Below, piece by piece: positions 1,307 to 13,752 of a stretch of 28,377 bases of DNA. The translations under genes and the position numbers were made by a program. Source of the stretch: a virus (taxonomy: Duplodnaviria; Heunggongvirae; Uroviricota; Caudoviricetes); the IMG/VR virus record IMGVR_UViG_2675903575_000014, positions 1 to 28,377 of that record. One strand, given 5' to 3'. How positions within the stretch are numbered: position 1 is the stretch's first letter; each line of letters opens with the position of its first letter. The notes under the pieces were generated by a model. The model was not told the origin of the DNA. It ran no database searches and saw only the letters and a list, made by a program, of their open reading frames with translations.

Positions 1307-3778
1307 TTAAAAATCAACCGGATTCGGGATCAGTTTTTGCCAGATTGCTGAAACGTATTTTGCCTGGTAACGGGCGTCATCAAGTGCATTATGGCGCTCA
1401 CCTTCGAATGGAATAGCCATTCTGGCATCGAAGTCTATGGCTTTCCCCAGCTCAACGATTGTGCGTACATCGCGATCGTTGTAGTAACGCCACGGGCAGG
1501 GGATCCCCTGCCGTTCGTATGAACGGCGCAAAATCGTGTTGTCGAAGTTGGCTCCATTTCCCCAGACCTGAACAAAAAATTCACCGGAGTTTTCGTCGAT
1601 AAATTCCCGCAATTGTAACAGTGCATCATCTAACGGGATTTCATCGGTCATAATGGCAGATTGCGCTTCGCGTGATTGCTTAAGCCACCATTTAATGGTG
1701 TCCCGATCAATGACTCCGCCAGCAGTTTCCAGATCGATAGTCTTACTAAATTCCGGTCCCATATCTCCGGTTTGCGGATCGAAAAATATTGCACCTATTG
1801 AGATAATCGGGGCATCAGGATTTTTTCCCATGGTTTCAAGGTCGATCATTAGATGGTCACACGTCCTGCTGGTGGATGTGATAACGTGATGACCGTTCAC
1901 CGTAATTAAGGGATCTGCCGTCTCGCCAGTTTCACTATCGCTGGCGTGATCCTGAGCGCTGCCAGCATTCTCTTTGTGTGGATGTTCAGCGCCTTCCATT
2001 TTCTCCGAATCGTCTTCCTGAACTTCAACCTGGTTCTTGTCATCGAATGTTTCCTGGTATGTTGCGTCGCCCATCACCGCACCACAATCAGGGCAGTTGC
2101 CGCCGCCGGTCTGACCGCAGGCGGTGCAGACTTTTTCCGCTTCCTGTTGCGCTACTGGCTCAGGTTGTTTCGTTTCTGGCTCGTTTTGTAACGCATTTGG
2201 GCTGTTTTGTTCCGCTTTCTGGTCGTTCTGTTCCGTTTCTTGCTGGTTCTGATTCACTGAATCGCGGGTTTCAATCCCCTTCACCCATTTCGGATCATTC
2301 GGGTCGCTAATCCCTGCAACAAATTCACCACGTGATACAGCAAGCAACTTATCGGCGTCAGGCTGGCTGATATTGGCTGCCTGCATAATTTTGTTTACTT
2401 CGTCAGCGGTAACTTTTACCGGCTCTGGTTGTGCGGTCGTGTCAGATGCACCAGTATTTTGTTGTGAACCTGAGTATGTACCGTTTTTACGGGCAAAATA
2501 TTCTTCTTTCGTGATTTCAGTAGCCCCTGCAGTCAGCGCCTTATTCAGACCAGAAAGTTTGTTTGCGCGACCATATTTTTCGCCATCCTTGTCGGTGAAG
2601 AGGAAGTAGAACGGCCCCTCACGCTCTACAGATGGTTCGACTTCCACTTTGCATTCGGTTTTTTCGTTGTCCGGAATTGCCGTTTCCACTGCATCAGTTT
2701 CTGGTACTGGCGACGAGAGAGTATCAGTTGCGCTCTGATTTCTTCCTTCATCTTCAAACACGCCCTTTGTAGTCAGGTATTCAGTAATGTATTTGTTCAG
2801 TGCCACAGGGTCTTTGTGAATGTCGATCGGACGTTCACGGACAAGGCCAAAAATAGTCTGGCGGTCGTAGCGAAGGGCATCAGGCTGTTTGCGCATTGAT
2901 GCCGAGATACGCTTCCAGTCTTCGCGGTCGTTGTCGATAACTTCATTTTTTGCCCAGCGATGGATGCTGCCGTCAATGTTTCCGGCATCCACATCACCAG
3001 GCCAGAGAGCGTAGGCCAGTTCGTCATCCAGTGTTTTCCATGTCTGCTTGTATTCGCGATGAGTGGCAGCAATGACCGGGCTGATTTTTCCTGTTGAATT
3101 GTCAGTGTACTGTTGATTGGCTCTGGCGCGGGCGAGATCAACAACAGACGTGTATTTTCCGGTTTCCTTGCGTTCACCTTCGCGACGTTTTTTCCAGATG
3201 CGCATCTCTGCCTGAATTTCGGGCCATTTAGCACCAGGAATACATTTATGCTTAACCCACCCAATGGCGTGCAACTTAAGCTCCGGATACATGGCGTTAA
3301 CTTCTGGCATTTTCATCAACGCTTCAACGATATGTCCGTCGAATGTTGCCATGTCTTCCTGCAACAATTCCTGTGCGCTAATAACCATATCAACGGTGAT
3401 GTTTTCACATGTGTCGAACTTAACCAGGACCGCGTTCTGTACTTCAGGGGACAGCTTGTCAAAATTGACGTTCATCGGATCGGATTCTGGTTCGACCGGA
3501 ATAAAGGAAGCGGATTCCTCATCCCAGCAGTTTTCCTGCATATATTCGGTATCCCAGGAGTCGATGGCAGGGCGGGGCATGCCGGGTTTATCCTCGCAAA
3601 CAAGAAATTTATAAGCGCAGTCCTGAGCAGCCGGATATTGCTCCAGGAATTGCCAGGTAAATTTGGCTCGGGCGCGGCGTTCGTCGCCGGCTTCAATGGC
3701 AGTGGCTACAGCGACTGCACCTTCTTCCTTTATTGCCTGTTCGTCCGGAATGGCGGCGCAAATAAAGACTTTACTCAT
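1307..3778 (-). CDS. Large exonuclease-family protein (823 aa) with a C-terminal DnaQ-like (DEDDh) 3'-5' exonuclease domain
   Basis: C-terminal ~180 aa carries DLETMG ... NGANFD ... HNALDDA motifs typical of DEDD exonucleases. The middle is acidic and low-complexity (Q/E/N-rich), with a CxxC-x8-CxxC zinc-ribbon-like motif (CTACGQTGGGNCPDCG). It occupies the lambda exo / Rac recE position. Confidence 0.7.
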   Translation of the reverse strand: MSKVFICAAIPDEQAIKEEGAVAVATAIEAGDERRARAKFTWQFLEQYPAAQDCAYKFLVCEDKPGMPRPAIDSWDTEYMQENCWDEESASFIPVEPESDPMNVNFDKLSPEVQNAVLVKFDTCENITVDMVISAQELLQEDMATFDGHIVEALMKMPEVNAMYPELKLHAIGWVKHKCIPGAKWPEIQAEMRIWKKRREGERKETGKYTSVVDLARARANQQYTDNSTGKISPVIAATHREYKQTWKTLDDELAYALWPGDVDAGNIDGSIHRWAKNEVIDNDREDWKRISASMRKQPDALRYDRQTIFGLVRERPIDIHKDPVALNKYITEYLTTKGVFEDEGRNQSATDTLSSPVPETDAVETAIPDNEKTECKVEVEPSVEREGPFYFLFTDKDGEKYGRANKLSGLNKALTAGATEITKEEYFARKNGTYSGSQQNTGASDTTAQPEPVKVTADEVNKIMQAANISQPDADKLLAVSRGEFVAGISDPNDPKWVKGIETRDSVNQNQQETEQNDQKAEQNSPNALQNEPETKQPEPVAQQEAEKVCTACGQTGGGNCPDCGAVMGDATYQETFDDKNQVEVQEDDSEKMEGAEHPHKENAGSAQDHASDSETGETADPLITVNGHHVITSTSRTCDHLMIDLETMGKNPDAPIISIGAIFFDPQTGDMGPEFSKTIDLETAGGVIDRDTIKWWLKQSREAQSAIMTDEIPLDDALLQLREFIDENSGEFFVQVWGNGANFDNTILRRSYERQGIPCPWRYYNDRDVRTIVELGKAIDFDARMAIPFEGERHNALDDARYQAKYVSAIWQKLIPNPVDF

Positions 3779-6190: not shown

Positions 6191-6841
6191 CTATAGGCTG
6201 AACTGCACACCTTTTGCTACAGCAACAATTTTACATTCAGGTGTCAGTAAGGACGATTGATAGCGAGGATTGAGGGGGCTTAAATACACGAGTTTTCCGT
6301 CGATGACTAATTTTTTTATAGTCATAGATGGTTCGTTTGTAAGCGGATCTGGGACTATTACAGCGACGATACTACCATTTTTATATTTTTCTCTAGGCCT
6401 CATGATCACTGTGGCACCAACCGGAATGCTTGGCGACCCTGATGGGTTGTGCATAGTGTCATCAGGCATTGAAACGGCAAAATCCCCCTCCTTGACGTCA
6501 AAGAATGTGGTGATTCTGTCGGCATTTCCCATAGTTTTCTCTCCTTCTAAAATTAGGAAAGAAATTGCTTCCCCCCATGAAAGATAGGGGATTTGGGTGC
6601 CTGAATTGTTCTGCACAAGGGTAGGTTCAGTAGACGATACTCCATATAGGAGATAGGACTCAGTAGTTCCTAGTGCTTGGGCTAATTTACTAAGAGCTTT
6701 GCTACCGGGTTCGTTTAGGTCTTTCTCCCAGTACCCTATAGTTACCCCTGTTACGCCAGAAAGCTTGCCCAGTTCGACTTGGGTCAGTCCCTTGTCTTTT
6801 CTGAGTCTCTTAAGCCTAATGCCAAGGCTTTCCATCATCAT
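6191..6841 (-). CDS. cI: CI-type prophage repressor (HTH_XRE N-terminal domain plus LexA/S24-like autoprotease C-terminal domain)
   Basis: N-terminal LKRLRKDKGLTQVELGKLSGVTGVTIGYWE is a classic XRE helix-turn-helix. The C-terminal domain has a Ser in the AVSMPDDTM context and a Lys in TIKKLV, consistent with the S24 catalytic dyad. Three tandem ATGs; the third (6835) has the best SD spacing. Divergent from cro. Confidence 0.85.
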   Translation of the reverse strand: MMMESLGIRLKRLRKDKGLTQVELGKLSGVTGVTIGYWEKDLNEPGSKALSKLAQALGTTESYLLYGVSSTEPTLVQNNSGTQIPYLSWGEAISFLILEGEKTMGNADRITTFFDVKEGDFAVSMPDDTMHNPSGSPSIPVGATVIMRPREKYKNGSIVAVIVPDPLTNEPSMTIKKLVIDGKLVYLSPLNPRYQSSLLTPECKIVAVAKGVQFSL

Positions 6842-6933: not shown

Positions 6934-7161
6934 ATGCGAGTTGATGAACTTGTCCAGTTTTTTGGCTCTGTTCAGAGAGTTGCCGATTTTTATGGGATAA
7001 CCCGTGAAGCTATATACATGTGGCGCAAACGTCCTGGTGAAATAGTTCCCAAGGGGAGGGCCGCGGAAGCTGCCGCATACTCCAAGGGAAAATTATCTTT
7101 GAACCCAGAACTTTACAAAAAGAAGGATAACACCTTGAACGAAGGAAAGAATGATTCATGA
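6934..7161 (+). CDS. cro: Cro-like transcriptional regulator (YdaS/Cro family, 75 aa)
   Basis: Small HTH protein divergently transcribed from the repressor gene; motif FYGITREAIYMWRK; its stop overlaps the next gene start (ATGA). Confidence 0.75.
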   Translation: MRVDELVQFFGSVQRVADFYGITREAIYMWRKRPGEIVPKGRAAEAAAYSKGKLSLNPELYKKKDNTLNEGKNDS

Positions 7162-7583
7162 AAATCAAGCATGAACACATCCGCATGGCGATGAATGCCT
7201 GGGCGCGTCCTGATGGCGAAAAAGTTCCAGCAGCTGGAATAACCCAGGCTTATTTTGAGTTGGGTATGACGTTTCCTGAACTGTATGACGATAGCCATCC
7301 GGAAGCCCTGGCTCGCAATACCCAGAAAATTTTCCGCTGGGTAGAGAAAGACACCCCTGATGCAGTTGAAAAAATTCAGACGTTGTTACCAGCGATCGAA
7401 AAGGCAATGCCACCTTTGCTGGTGGCCAGAATGCGCAGCCACAGTTCAGCTTATTTTCGGGAGCTGGTGGAGACGCGGGAGCGACTGGTGAGAGACGCTG
7501 ATGATTTTGTCGCAGTGGCAATCGCCGGTTTCAATCAGATGAACCGTGGTGGCCCGGCAGGAAATGCTGTGGCAGTACATTGA
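7158..7583 (+). CDS. YdaT-family protein (Rac-type CII functional analogue, 141 aa)
   Basis: Position immediately after cro and size match Rac ydaS-ydaT. I recall the MKIKHEHIRMAMN... N-terminus as YdaT-like, but this is from memory and unverified. Confidence 0.6.
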   Translation: MKIKHEHIRMAMNAWARPDGEKVPAAGITQAYFELGMTFPELYDDSHPEALARNTQKIFRWVEKDTPDAVEKIQTLLPAIEKAMPPLLVARMRSHSSAYFRELVETRERLVRDADDFVAVAIAGFNQMNRGGPAGNAVAVH

Positions 7584-7654
7584 CTGACAATAGCCATATC
7601 GAATCACTTCCGGCAACTCGTGAGTAAAAAGATTCGGTATCAGAAGAGGTGAGT

Positions 7655-8674
7655 ATGGCTAACGCTTGGCTCAGATTATGGCATGACATGCCAAATGACC
7701 CTAAGTGGCGAACAATTGCCAGGGTGTCAGGGCAGCCAATTGCAACAGTGATGGCAGTGTATATCCACCTCCTGGTGAGCGCGTCACGAAATGTCACGCG
7801 AGGTCACATTGATGTCACGACAGAAGATTTGGCAAGTGCGCTCGACGTGACAGAAGAGGTAATTGATTCAATTTTGCAGACGATGCAGGGGCGGGTACTT
7901 GATGGTGATTTAATCACTGGATGGGAAAAACGCCAGGTACTGAAAGAGGACAATGGCAACGTTTCACAAACCGCGAAATCCCCGGCAGAGCGCAAGAGAG
8001 CGCAGCGCGAGAGGGAAAAATTACGAAAACAGAATGAGGGGTGTCACGACGAGTCACGCATATGTCACGACATGTCACGACGAGTCACGACAGATAAAGA
8101 TACAGATAAAGAATTAAACCCCACACATAACGCGCGCGTGCGCGAGAGAGCTACGACCAGTGAGTCGAACGGTACGCCATCGCAGACACCGGAGCCCGAA
8201 TATCTGGACGGCATGAGCGAACCCATCGGGAAATTTCCGATGACCGATGGCTGGCATCCGTCGCCGGATTTTCGACGACGGGCTGCTCTGTGGGGAGTGG
8301 CTCTGCCTGAGCCGGAATTTACACCAGCTGAATTTGCAGCCTTCCGGGACTACTGGGCAGCGGAGGGGAAAGTGTTCACGCAGATTCAGTGGGAGCAGAA
8401 ATTCGCCCGTCACGTAAATCACGTCAGGGCGCAGGTTAAACCAGTCAGCAAGGGGGTAAACCATGCAGCAGCACCAGGTGGCACCGCATCACGAGCAGTT
8501 CAGGAAATTCGGGCAGCACGTGAGCAGTGGGAACGTGAAAACGGATTTATCAGCGACGGAAACGGCCTGGAAGCTGTGGGAACTCATGGGGGAGGTTTAT
8601 TCGAACCGCTGGACCCAGAAGAACGGGGCCGCACCTTCGAAGCTCTGGATTGCACAGATTGGCGCGATGACTGA
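7655..8674 (+). CDS. Replication initiator (O-like replisome organiser with DnaT-like C-terminal domain)
   Basis: ATG at 7655 with GAGGTG SD. N-terminal MANAWLRLWHDMPNDPKWR... resembles phage replisome-organiser N-domains; C-terminal PEFTPAEFAAFRDYWAAEGKVFTQIQWEQKF resembles DnaT-like domains. Contains two iteron clusters. The last ~70 codons overlap the P-like gene in another frame. Confidence 0.75.
   Translation: MANAWLRLWHDMPNDPKWRTIARVSGQPIATVMAVYIHLLVSASRNVTRGHIDVTTEDLASALDVTEEVIDSILQTMQGRVLDGDLITGWEKRQVLKEDNGNVSQTAKSPAERKRAQREREKLRKQNEGCHDESRICHDMSRRVTTDKDTDKELNPTHNARVRERATTSESNGTPSQTPEPEYLDGMSEPIGKFPMTDGWHPSPDFRRRAALWGVALPEPEFTPAEFAAFRDYWAAEGKVFTQIQWEQKFARHVNHVRAQVKPVSKGVNHAAAPGGTASRAVQEIRAAREQWERENGFISDGNGLEAVGTHGGGLFEPLDPEERGRTFEALDCTDWRDD
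7783..7819 (+). repeat. Iteron-like direct repeats, cluster 1 (four GTCAC(G/A) copies at 10-bp spacing)
   Basis: GTCACG at 7783, 7793 and 7814 and GTCACA at 7803, one helical turn apart, inside the O-like gene. Confidence 0.45.
8043..8094 (+). repeat. Origin iterons, cluster 2 (five GTCACG(AC) copies at 10-11-bp spacing, followed by an AT-rich stretch)
   Basis: GTCACGAC at 8043, 8064, 8074 and 8084 and GTCACGCA at 8053, then AT-rich cagataaagatacagataaagaattaaa. This is the classic lambdoid ori-within-O arrangement. Confidence 0.6.
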
Positions 8675-9128
8675 GCAGCAAATCCGTCAGGTCTGCCGCC
8701 AGTGCATGGACCGCTGCCGGACGGGTGAAACATGGCCTCCGGACCTGGCTGAGTTTGTGGCGCTGATTTCGGAGAGTGGGGCAAATCCATTTGGTCTGAC
8801 GGTGGATGCTGTGATGGAGGAGTACCGCCGCTGGCGCAATGAGTCCTGGCGATACGACGGAAGTGATAAGTACCCGTGGTCTCAGCCTGTGCTGTATCAC
8901 ATTTGCCTCGAGATGCGTTCAAAGGGGATTGAGCGCCAGATGACCGAAGGGGAGTTAAAACGGCTTGCAGAATGGCAACTGACGAAATGGGCAAAGCATG
9001 TTGGTAATGGCCTGAGCATTCCGCCAGTCCGGCGACAACTGGCAGCACCAAAACGCCCGTCGGGACCAACGCCAATTGAGTTGCTGAAACAGGAGTATGA
9101 ACGCCGGAAAGCGGCTGGTTTTGTTTGA
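8463..9128 (+). CDS. Replication protein P-like (helicase loader family, 221 aa)
   Basis: AAGGGGG SD then ATG at 8463. Residues about 40-150 align by eye with lambda P (lambda ...EIRRQWVLAFRENGITTMEQVNAGMRVARRQ... vs here ...[31 protein letters not shown]...; lambda YPWKSNAHYWL vs here [11 protein letters not shown]). Confidence 0.7.
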
Positions 9129-10993: not shown

Positions 10994-12874
10994 TTATCGC
11001 CCAGCAGATTTAGCAAGAATAGTCTCGAGCATTTCTGGTACGTTGCCTTTAGCATTGATAGTTGCTGTTCGGTAAGCTAGTTGATTTTTTGAGAGATTGA
11101 TTCCTGTAAGTGCTTCAATTTCGTTGCAGGCCTTACCCCATTCTACCCAGTTTTCAGACAAAAAAGATTCAAGATGATCCGCAAATATAGCAATATCATT
11201 AGTAACTGTTGCAGCTGGAAAATCCTCTTCGGGCATACCAAAGTATCTAAGCAGACTTCGATTCTCCATTGCGTGATTATTCCGCTCGGCATCGATAGCT
11301 CCCTGCATTTTATTTTTCGCTTTGGCACGAGCTTCAAAACCCGCATCTGCATCGAAAAGCGCGAAAACAGGAACGCCAATTGTACTTAGAATCGCATGGG
11401 CAAGTGGGATTGATGTCTTTGAACCTACAGGAACAATAGAGATGCCAGCGGCTTCAAGCGAGCCGTGTGACTTCCTGTCGCCAATTCCATAAAACACCGA
11501 TAATTCTGTTGTCCCTTCTACCAGAAAAGCTCTTTGGGCAAAGAGAGCTATTGAAAGCTGATCAGCTACATTATGGCCAAGCCTTCTATCAACTACTTCG
11601 GCATTAACAATTCCTTTTAATTTATCTTTGACATCTTCGATGGTTGCAAAGTGAACAGAAACAACGGGGTTTGCATCAGATGTTCGTGTCAATCGTCTAA
11701 TCTGGTTGAAATGGCGAGCTTCAAGAAAGTATGGGCTGTGAGTCGCATATGTTATCTGTATGCGCTTATCCGCATCTTCGGCGAGTTCTCTGAGTACTTT
11801 TGCAAATGCTTGTGCTTGGATCGGATGCTGAAATAATTCTGGTTCTTCGATCGCAAGGCAAATAACACCTTCGGTAGAGGCTGCACCAGACTGAGCTAAT
11901 AATTGGAGAGCAGAGATCAGTATCGTGCGTTGAAAGCCGTGCCCTTGCCTTTCGACTGCTGTTTCGGTTGTGCCATCAAGCACAGAAACTTCGAATGTGG
12001 TCTTGGGGGCCTTCAGTTCGATATTTGCAGGGGTAACTGTAACAGCACGACCGGGGGAGTAAGTCGTAACTACGGCGTTCAACTGCGCCGTCATATCCGC
12101 AAGTTGGGTTTCGAATTTTTCTTTGTAGACTTTCTGCTGCTGGACTCGGGATTCTTCAACAATCTTTGCAATTTCCTCATCTGCGGCGGTGCGATCAATC
12201 GAACGTTCAAGAATTCGACCAATAATACTCGCCTTGCCATCGAGAGACTCTTCACTGGCACGAAGATCTGCTGTTACCAAAACGTAATCAAAGAGACCGC
12301 TCATCTTGCCGCCACTGTTGAAACCGAAAAAGTTGGTTTGTAGGGATTCAAGTGCCTCATGTAGTAATTCTGTATGTGATGCTTCCCATGCAGTCATTGC
12401 TTCTTCGACAGCAAGCCCGGTCTTGGCAACGGGAAGATTGAATTCAGGATGTGCTTCTCGAAGAGCGTTGTACAAATCCTTCTTCGCTGTTGCTCCATTA
12501 GCAGCTTTAATATCGTTAAAATAAGGGAAACTTTTTGCGTTGGCAGAAAGCCTTTCTGAACCGTCGGGCGCGCGTAGCCTCCAGGCAGTGAATGTTGCTG
12601 CTCCCTGCGGAGCGTATTTGCCAAGTGCTTCACGATCTCTCTCAGTGAGGTTTGAGAAGGTAACCTGTACCTCAATATCTTTATCAATAGTTCCAAATGA
12701 GCAATCTTTTTCATTTAACATCCCGACCTTACCGTTGAAGAACCAATCAAGTGCTCGGAGAACAGTAGATTTACCTGCCCCATTCGGGCCAATGAACGTT
12801 GTAACGGAATCGAAGGGAATATTTATATCTGTCAAAGTACGAAAGTTTTTTATCCTAACGGAATGAATTTTCAT
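10994..12874 (-). CDS. OLD-family ATP-dependent nuclease (N-terminal ABC-type ATPase plus C-terminal Toprim; 626 aa); class 1 OLD or fused PARIS AriA-AriB-like
   Basis: Walker A GPNGAGKST (residues 30-38); Walker B-like VICLAIEEPELFQHP; H-loop-like YATHSPYF; C-terminal Toprim-like FLVEGTTE, VPVGSKTS and FALFDADAG. No adjacent UvrD-like helicase gene. AT-rich relative to flanking phage genes. Confidence 0.8.
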   Translation of the reverse strand: MKIHSVRIKNFRTLTDINIPFDSVTTFIGPNGAGKSTVLRALDWFFNGKVGMLNEKDCSFGTIDKDIEVQVTFSNLTERDREALGKYAPQGAATFTAWRLRAPDGSERLSANAKSFPYFNDIKAANGATAKKDLYNALREAHPEFNLPVAKTGLAVEEAMTAWEASHTELLHEALESLQTNFFGFNSGGKMSGLFDYVLVTADLRASEESLDGKASIIGRILERSIDRTAADEEIAKIVEESRVQQQKVYKEKFETQLADMTAQLNAVVTTYSPGRAVTVTPANIELKAPKTTFEVSVLDGTTETAVERQGHGFQRTILISALQLLAQSGAASTEGVICLAIEEPELFQHPIQAQAFAKVLRELAEDADKRIQITYATHSPYFLEARHFNQIRRLTRTSDANPVVSVHFATIEDVKDKLKGIVNAEVVDRRLGHNVADQLSIALFAQRAFLVEGTTELSVFYGIGDRKSHGSLEAAGISIVPVGSKTSIPLAHAILSTIGVPVFALFDADAGFEARAKAKNKMQGAIDAERNNHAMENRSLLRYFGMPEEDFPAATVTNDIAIFADHLESFLSENWVEWGKACNEIEALTGINLSKNQLAYRTATINAKGNVPEMLETILAKSAGR

Positions 12875-13385: not shown

Positions 13386-13469
13386 TTTTATATTGGCGAG
13401 GTGACGTGAGTTAAGTAGAATTGCTGCGGGTGCTTGAGGCTATCTGTCTCAGGCATGAACACCAAAGGC

Positions 13470-13560
13470 AGATAGAGAAAAGCCCCAGTTAACATTACGC
13501 GTCCTGCAAGACGCTTAACATTAATCTGAGGCTCAATCTATGAACGGCAAATCTAGGTTA
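13470..13560 (-). ncRNA. Predicted Sok-like antisense RNA of the hok locus (position approximate)
   Basis: Inferred from hok/sok family architecture. The leader (gcttgaggctatctgtctcagg ... ggcagatagagaaaagcccc) resembles, from my memory of R1, the hok mRNA 5' region. No explicit promoter was mapped. Confidence 0.25.
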
Positions 13561-13596
13561 GCCTCTTACGTGCCGAAAGGCAAGGAGAAGCAGGCT

Positions 13597-13752
13597 ATGA
13601 AGCAGCAAAAGGCGATGTTAATCGCCCTGATCGTCATCTGTTTAACCGTCATTGTGACGGCACTGGTAACGAGGAAAGACCTCTGCGAGGTACGAATCCG
13701 AACCGGCCAGACGGAGGTCGCTGTCTTCACAGCTTACGAACCTGAGGAGTAA
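13597..13752 (+). CDS. hok: Hok/Gef-family type I toxin (51 aa; MKQQKAMLIALIVICLTVIVTALVTRKDLCEVRIRTGQTEVAVFTAYEPEE)
   Basis: Single transmembrane helix followed by the conserved Cys-containing periplasmic tail typical of Hok/Gef; I recall this as matching E. coli HokD/RelF, unverified. An in-frame upstream ATG at 13540 gives a 70-aa mok-like extension. Confidence 0.85.
   Translation: MKQQKAMLIALIVICLTVIVTALVTRKDLCEVRIRTGQTEVAVFTAYEPEE

Follow-up and report, generated by a model that had tools for sequence, protein, structure and literature searches.

Replication origins inside the gene of their own initiator, iterons beside an AT-rich tract, and a modular division of specificity between the N- and C-terminal halves of the initiator are already classical from the phages lambda and SPP1. 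The lambda origin (ori) contains four inverted-repeat iterons of roughly 19 bp which are bound by dimers of the O protein, and to our knowledge lambda has no second iteron array upstream of these. Two clusters of one initiator-binding repeat per replicon are found in satellite phage P4 (ori and crr) and in plasmid P1 (incC and incA, flanking repA); such clusters are intergenic or flank the gene, lie hundreds to thousands of bases apart, and may have a positive role through looping, as crr does in P4, or a negative role through handcuffing, as incA does in P1. Here we analysed a stretch of 28,377 nucleotides (nt) from a virus of the Caudoviricetes (IMG/VR record IMGVR_UViG_2675903575_000014; the whole stretch is referred to as the window), in which two arrays of the hexamer GTCACG are located within a single open reading frame (ORF), 7649-8674, the gene of a putative replication initiator. 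Sequence comparison best supports the reading that the initiator gene harbours a bipartite iteron origin, in which the upstream array (array 1) would be a second, selected cluster of sites for the same initiator protein that would recognise the downstream array (array 2).

In SPP1 the origin oriL lies inside gene 38, where AB-box repeats bound by G38P adjoin an AT-rich unwinding element; a 356-bp oriL fragment suffices in vitro, and oriR, a second G38P-binding region, occupies a separate and discrete region of the genome (PMC5737612). An active origin, oriJ, has been reported in the Rac prophage (PMC3945230).

The candidate origin in the window has in common with the lambda ori in gene O that it is located inside the initiator gene, at the link between a putative N-terminal DNA-binding domain (N-domain) and a C-terminal domain (C-domain) that would recruit the loader. 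Also as in lambda, the iterons are followed by an AT-rich tract, a gene of the P family of loaders (PF06992 here) is found downstream, and there are two exchangeable modules, one comprising the N-domain with the iterons and the other the C-domain with the loader. It differs in that the initiator in the window has no sequence relationship to lambda O, that its sites are direct repeats of 6-9 nt, one per helical turn, which lack the 19-bp inverted symmetry, and that a second array is present in the gene, within the N-domain codons some 230 nt further upstream. A first-pass annotation of this DNA had likened it to the lambda ori-in-O arrangement, and this likeness holds for the order of iterons, AT-rich tract, C-domain coding sequence and P-like loader gene, but not for the type of iteron.

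SPP1 oriL is likewise embedded in a replisome-organizer gene with its repeats beside an AT-rich element, and the N-domain in the window gives a full-length but sub-threshold match to PF09681, the N-terminal family of G38P. Unlike the separate oriR, however, the second array in the window is within the same gene, and the C-domain and loader differ. With P4 and P1 the window shares two separated clusters of one motif, one at the unwinding site and the other distant; here, in contrast, the second cluster overprints codons of the initiator's putative DNA-binding domain at 230 nt from the first, and the proteins are unrelated. The 3′ half of the gene is 93% identical to ydaU of Rac-SA53 from position 8092 on (tract, AACCCCACACATA/GC block and DnaT-like domain), but the Rac-SA53 ydaU product has another N-terminal sequence, and its gene is without GTCACG arrays and carries in the same linker an inverted repeat, GTTCAAACA / TGTTTGAAC (locus L002, 2437-2480). 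An E. coli gene that matches the tract region only is annotated DUF1376. No description of the origin of this family, of direct repeats at one site per turn, or of a concerted, overprinted second array was found in the literature.

Two iteron arrays in one gene

Array 1 (GTCACGaaatGTCACGcgagGTCACAttgatGTCACG) contains the hexamer three times in exact form and once with a mismatch at one position, giving four GTCAC units (Table 1). The earlier description of four copies at 10-bp spacing was thus nearly exact, apart from the mismatched copy and a last gap of 11 nt; for array 2 the five copies at 10-11 bp stand, but the array ends at 8089 and not at 8094. GTCACG occurs 18 times in the window, nine times inside 307 nt (7783-8089) and nine times as scattered singles. 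Chains of at least four copies at 10/11-nt spacing are formed solely by GTCAC and TCACG among all 5-mers of the whole window, at just these two places (5 and 4 copies), and no 5-mer gave a chain longer than 3 when the window was simulated 300 times with a first-order Markov model. Both arrays are far beyond chance. The repeat unit is a direct repeat of a 6-9-nt core with a period of 10-11 nt, and the sequence hallmark of an iteron origin, at least three direct repeats in helical phase beside a low-stability tract, is present.

Array 1 overprints codons 45-57 (ASRNVTRGHIDVT), which correspond to the end of helix 3 and the next loop of the N-domain, and array 2 falls within the codons of the basic linker, between the parts encoding the N-domain and the DnaT-like domain. 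GTCACG is read in all three frames (as V-T, C/G-H and S-R) because the 10-nt period demands it. A scan of 7500-8800 revealed no promoter-like site, and no Rfam family matched in the repeat region.

The tract directly behind array 2 (ACAGATAAAGATACAGATAAAGAATTAAA) has a G+C content of about 21%, and the 30-mer at 8089-8118 is the least stable of the gene (nearest-neighbour free energy, dG, -31.2 versus a gene mean of -42.6) and belongs to the top 0.33% of the window. The AT-rich tract and the subsequent GC-rich block that had been noted after array 2 are both real, the latter at 8131-8150 (CGCGCGCGTGCGCGAGAGAG), and the only stem found in the scan of 7500-8800 is a weak one in this GC block. 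The stability scan detected no low-stability tract of its own at array 1. A duplicated or a bipartite origin had been raised as possibilities for the two arrays. Array 2 alone has a low-stability tract while array 1 resides in codons of the N-domain loop without an unwinding element, and a duplicated origin was rejected for this reason.

Table 1. Location of the arrays, the tract and the surrounding genes in window coordinates
Feature	Position	Strand	Remarks
Array 1	7783-7819	+	GTCACG at 7783, GTCACG at 7793, GTCACA at 7803, GTCACG at 7814; spacing 10/10/11 nt
Array 2	8043-8089	+	Five exact GTCACG at 8043, 8053, 8064, 8074 and 8084; spacing 10/11/10/10 nt
Single inverted GTCACG	7846-7851	-	27 nt 3′ of array 1, in D-V-T codons
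AT-rich, purine-rich hexanucleotide tract (GATAAA/GATACA units)	8090-8118	.	Directly 3′ of array 2; candidate DNA unwinding element
Conserved junction sequence and alternating-CG block	8119-8150	.	AACCCCACACATAACGCGCGCGTGCGCGAGAG; part of the DnaT-type C-module, not of the N-domain/array cassette
Initiator ("O-like") gene, 341 amino acids (aa)	7649-8674	+	N-domain ~aa 1-100, basic linker, DnaT-like C-domain aa 196-262
Lambda-P-like helicase-loader gene	8667-9128 (RefSeq call)	+	Pfam PF06992, E=5.9e-16; phrog_109
DUF1627 gene			After the P-like loader gene
YdaT-like gene	7158-7583
Cro-like gene	6934-7161
cI-like repressor gene	6191-6841	-

Concerted change of the two arrays across the family

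A search with the N-domain retrieved 67 genomic loci from Gamma-, Beta- and Alphaproteobacteria with 34-95% identity, which were anchored on the codons for MP[NT]DPKW. The arrays were scored in 61 of these loci (40-95% N-domain identity) with four motifs tested. The motif of each locus was chosen with periodicity taken into account; the commonest hexamer of the linker, tried first, often gave unrelated words.

In most loci the commonest periodic short motif was found in two arrays at the same two positions of the gene and with 10-11-nt spacing. The motif class of array 1 matched that of array 2 in all 43 two-array loci (GTCACG 23/23, GTAACG 6/6, GAACGC 13/13 and GTGACG 1/1), and cross-class combinations were absent (0). 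At the protein level the loop SRNVTRGH pairs with the linker CHxESRNVT, and the loop SNATERGRTQ with the linker NATERNRT. In a neighbour-joining tree with the loop masked, which is rough as it is based on about 80 residues, a switch between GTCAC and GTAAC is seen at four or more points, and in every case both arrays had switched; L028 (grouped with L026/L029), L035 (within the GTCAC clade) and L032 (next to L037) are examples. Composite forms are mirrored across both arrays as well, with GTAACGTTAC palindromes in L026/L029 and GTCACGTCACGTCAC in L028. The first-pass annotation had pointed to two separated arrays in the window, and these are not accidental, since the layout recurs across the family and both arrays change motif together.

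The arrays also occur in isolated phages, with 4+4 copies of GTCACG in Pseudomonas phage P7869, 4+3 copies in Aeromonas phage pAEv1818, and 5+4 copies of a fifth class, GCAACG, in Ralstonia phage Firinga (38% identity). No arrays were found in a Microcystis phage (35% identity). The module is present in 2227 of 5426 complete E. coli genomes, including prophages of O157:H7, with at most five copies per genome.

The last array-2 iteron is followed across the family loci by a tract of (AGATAA)n, (AGATAC)n or (AGAGAC)n of 18-42 nt, at a gap of exactly 2 nt in 25 loci and of 0-4 nt in most. An insertion in L015 shifts array 2, which stays beside the tract and not at a set distance from array 1. One locus (L047) has no iterons by the tested motifs, yet displays eight tandem AGATAA units (nine copies in total in the linker).

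The arrays were further observed to evolve like small tandem repeats. A block of three iterons is tandemly duplicated in array 2 of L062, and the units in both arrays of L028 have 5-nt spacing and mixed orientations.

Selection on the DNA of array 1

The codon usage of array 1 was assessed in 21 loci of the GTCACG class from many genera. Val is encoded by GTC, Thr by ACG and Gly by GGT in 100% of the loci, and Ser by TCA and Ala by GCG in 90%. By comparison, the modal codon reaches a fraction of 0.3-0.55 at the other conserved 4-6-fold degenerate positions in this domain, and an Arg codon situated in an array-1 spacer is free (0.38). The synonymous fixation of array 1 was significant by the Mann-Whitney test in the GTCACG class (p=0.001) and in the AACGC class (p=0.01). 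At the isolated inverted copy, every GTCACG-class locus with Val at this position encodes it by GTG (100%), and inverted copies occur in other loci too. In array 2 of phage Tritos the hexamers are kept and the spacers are different.

These patterns indicate that selection on array 1 acts on DNA and not on protein. A repeat at the protein level was rejected because synonymous sites are frozen and all three frames are used. The helical period of 10-11 nt together with the conserved inverted copies points to double-stranded DNA as the target, rather than RNA.

The loop encoded by array 1 takes insertions that add units, as in E. albertii and E. coli, including O157:H7, where 21 nt (two units, TCHGVSL, 7 aa) are inserted, and in L032, where an insertion of about 20 aa is built of extra array-1 units. 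It is a tolerant surface loop overprinted by array 1, and the DNA motif would therefore dictate its amino acids.

The N-domain as candidate binder of the arrays

The genes surrounding the arrays vary considerably. Among the 67 loci, a YdaT-like gene is found in 5, a P-like gene in 8, a DnaT-like C-domain in 4 and a Cro-like gene in 6, and the gene that follows may encode a P-like loader, DnaB or a primase-helicase. The N-domain is the sole part of the gene that always accompanies the arrays and, being their only constant companion, appears to be the best candidate for the protein that binds them. The motif classes differ just at those loop positions that are encoded by array 1; the existence of array-2-only GAACGC loci with unrelated loops argues against the loop peptide as specificity determinant.

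The C-domain (aa 196-262) is a clear match to the Pfam family DnaT (PF17948, E=2.3e-17, 62.9 bits versus a cut-off of 25), and the protein is not a DnaT equivalog by NCBIfam (95 bits versus a cut-off of 201). The N-domain matched PF09681, the replisome organizer N-terminal family, below the cut-off (E=0.016, 15.7 bits versus 23.3), in an alignment that spans residues 7-122 and profile positions 1-116 of 121. Replication-initiation families were matched in PHROG, with weak matches to "replisome organizer". The RefSeq name of the initiator is "DnaT-like ssDNA-binding domain-containing protein", and NCBI labels relatives of the N-domain "phage replisome organizer". In the AlphaFold model of the N-domain (predicted local distance difference test, pLDDT, 80), helices at 3-16, 18-27, 31-47, 58-65 and 69-79 are followed by a beta-hairpin, a layout predicted to be winged-helix-like. 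A Foldseek comparison of this model with the PDB gave no significant match (best E=0.3), winged-helix regulators being among the top entries. No match to the lambda O family PF04492 was obtained, either with the whole protein (E<=0.01) or with the N-domain (E<=10). The earlier designation of the gene as O-like is accordingly justified by position and analogy, but not by family: there is no lambda O match, the N-domain is weakly replisome-organizer-like and the C-domain DnaT-like.

Mosaic structure of the initiator gene

In megablast comparisons with phage genomes the initiator gene splits at 8092-8112, within the AT-rich tract, in that N-module matches stop at 8112 and C-module matches start at 8092-8098. 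The 5′ part with both arrays is about 94-95% identical to phages Evi and Tritos and to several vB_Eco phages, and the 3′ part matches Rac-SA53 and PPompW phages. Array 1 of Tritos is identical, its array 2 has five GTCACG with spacers of its own, and its C-terminal half is unrelated. PPompW and Rac-SA53, conversely, have the tract, the AACCCCACACATA/GC block and the DnaT-like half in common with the window gene but possess other N-domains and other repeats, namely CCCAAAAAC direct repeats in PPompW and the GTTCAAACA inverted repeat in Rac-SA53. On the basis of these three comparisons, the arrays move with the N-domain and the GC block with the C-module, the tract serving as the joint. The GC block had been listed as a component of the origin arrangement, which is not upheld, as it belongs to the exchangeable C-module and is absent from Tritos despite the same N-module and both arrays.

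The PPompW repeats comprise about six (A)CCCAAA(AAC) direct repeats over some 200 nt of the same linker (L003, 2222-2420), and the linker repeats of PPompW and Rac-SA53 look like alternative origin-specificity cassettes. The sequence AAACCCCACACATAACGCGCG(C)GTGCGCGAGAG, coding for NPTHNARVRE, is located after the AT-rich tract in genes with unrelated N-domains (Rac-SA53 and PPompW). It is found in the window at 8119-8150, in L002 at 2528-2560, in L003 at 2418-2445 and in the linkers of L050 and L006, a Sphingomonas and a Serratia locus being among its carriers, and marks the start of the DnaT-type C-module.

In some records of Pseudomonas phages and prophages the initiator gene is split into two short ORFs immediately behind the iteron/tract region (L074, the locus of P7869, at 2501-3400; proteins P0030, P0034 and P0096). 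Shortened or frameshifted versions are frequent in the protein databases, often with the label "partial". Errors in sequencing, assembly or gene calling, or real frameshifts, may be promoted by the repeats.

Genomic setting

All of this lies in a lambdoid prophage, in its region for immunity and replication. Over 212 nt (8463-8674) the initiator ORF overlaps, in a different frame, with the P-like ORF. Among six near-identical homologues, variable sites up to about 8545 fall on third positions of the initiator frame, and those from 8552 on third positions of the P frame, so that the codon position of variable sites switches near 8550. Homology to the P family (Pfam and phrog_109) also reaches 5′ of the RefSeq start at 8667. 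Because of this third-position switch and the upstream P-family homology, the P-like gene probably begins upstream of the RefSeq call, with GTG 8535 or ATG 8586 as its start codon within the 3′-terminal part of the initiator ORF, whose last ~40 codons look unconstrained. In the profile searches, PHROG 15931 behaved as a fused O-P profile.

Two further loci in the window may be mentioned. A 626-aa protein encoded at 10994-12874 on the minus strand matches OLD-family/AriA/GajA ATPase-nuclease defence models (PADLOC Old, E=1.3e-55) and is likely, by these matches, a prophage-borne anti-phage defence gene. At 13428-13602 on the plus strand the Rfam sok antitoxin RNA was identified (RF01794, 110 bits), and a hok/sok-type toxin-antitoxin locus is thereby implied in the prophage.

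Discussion

We consider that both arrays may be functional sites of the initiator, with array 2 and the adjoining tract as the origin core, and assign this reading a probability of roughly 0.6. One may envisage that each direct repeat is bound by an N-domain, with one N-domain at every helical turn along a single face of the DNA, and that the five sites of array 2, which abut the tract, are occupied as well as the four direct sites of array 1, some 230 nt upstream, and the single inverted one. The protein-covered arrays would associate, and the DNA between them would be looped or wrapped into an O-some-like complex. This complex, together with supercoiling, could open the low-stability tract at 8090-8118, and the DnaT-like C-domain would then recruit the P-like loader and the host DnaB helicase. 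The positive (looping) role of array 1, taken alone, is a tentative element of this scheme and somewhat less likely than not. For the proteobacterial initiator family, the chances seem about even that the origin is truly bipartite, with array 1 bound by the initiator's own DNA-binding domain and acting in cis, as looping anchor or in copy control.

Several observations weigh against this bipartite origin. Array 1 is not universal: 5 of the 61 scored loci have array 2 only (GAACGC) and 11 have neither by the four motifs (a further 2 have array 1 only), and since array 1 is missing from some loci it is not indispensable for every family member. The distance from first copy to first copy between the arrays varies, mostly from 222 to about 280 nt and up to 350 nt in L015, and no obvious helical phasing of this distance was seen by eye, although a rigid loop might predict such phasing. 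The fold assignment of the N-domain is weak (Foldseek E=0.3; PF09681 below cut-off), and no N-domain residues outside the array-encoded loop were found to track the motif class, so that the specificity determinant was not found. The literature yielded nothing relevant on the origin or motif of the family, only general papers on lambda, SPP1 and Rac. Finally, the sequence fits a positive (looping) and a negative (copy control) role of array 1 alike.

The most probable alternative is that array 2 and the tract are the whole origin, with array 1 binding the same protein but exerting negative control. Array 1 could in that case titrate the initiator, be handcuffed to array 2 or to a sister copy, or act as a roadblock to transcription of the initiator gene. 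Whatever marks array 1 as a site under selection, with the specificity of array 2, speaks for this alternative to the same degree. Array 1 is also without its own unwinding tract, its copy number ranges from 4 to 6 or more, and it is lacking from some members, as expected of an accessory control element. Moreover, the array-2-only loci have 5, 2, 8, 5 and 7 copies of GAACG versus mostly 2-5 in two-array loci, although this is a small and phylogenetically non-independent sample. The absence of array 1 from some members and the weak trend to a longer array 2 there fit either an auxiliary or a control role. On the other hand, lytic growth calls for runaway replication and not for copy control, and the module is also present in phages isolated as virions. 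While nothing in the sequence separates the positive from the negative role, we regard negative control as the unlikelier explanation of array 1, and on balance as doubtful.

It is improbable that another factor, of the host or the phage, binds the repeats, or that they serve a role other than initiation, such as packaging, recombination or an RNA-level signal. Such an explanation would be in line with the finding that the motif class is tracked by no residue of the N-domain beyond the loop, and with the (GATAAA)n tract doubling as recombination joint between modules. The neighbouring genes change freely, however, while the N-domain is always present with the arrays, and a host factor would fail to explain five motif classes in related hosts or the switches between sister loci. 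The helical period and the inverted copies favour double-stranded DNA, Rfam gave no match in the region, and the position in the initiator gene beside an AT-rich tract corresponds to the origins of lambda and SPP1.

That array 1 is a functionless by-product, kept like array 2 by gene conversion or slippage in a tolerant loop, is the least probable explanation. The loop does accommodate the insertions mentioned above (7 aa in E. coli O157:H7 and E. albertii, about 20 aa in L032) and is otherwise free to differ between motif classes, and some lineages are without array 1. Against this, identity between the arrays is limited to a 5-7-nt core, and the spacers of array 1 are themselves conserved and differ from those of array 2, which leaves no long homology tract for gene conversion. 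The cores are fixed at synonymous sites across lineages of 55-75% protein identity, homologues with as little as 38% identity still retain the position, the orientation and the 10-11-nt phasing, and the isolated inverted copy is frozen too.

The module described here is very common, yet its origin has seemingly never been described and the gene is annotated only generically. It is also present in isolated phages of Pseudomonas, Aeromonas and Ralstonia. The comparison predicts a binding motif for each lineage, in five natural specificity classes that are 1-3 bases apart, and the unwinding tract. The arrays thereby provide a practical marker for annotating prophage origins and the specificity of replication modules. 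Furthermore, array 1 can be removed by synonymous recoding with the protein intact, and few systems permit so clean a test of a distant iteron cluster.

Array 1 is a clear natural case in which a DNA-site code and a protein code occupy the same bases and the site code wins. If the bipartite origin is real across the family, array 1 must co-evolve with array 2 and with the specificity of the protein, and the amino acids of the surface loop would be set by the DNA site rather than by protein function. The origin and its recognition domain would then travel between phages as a self-contained cassette.

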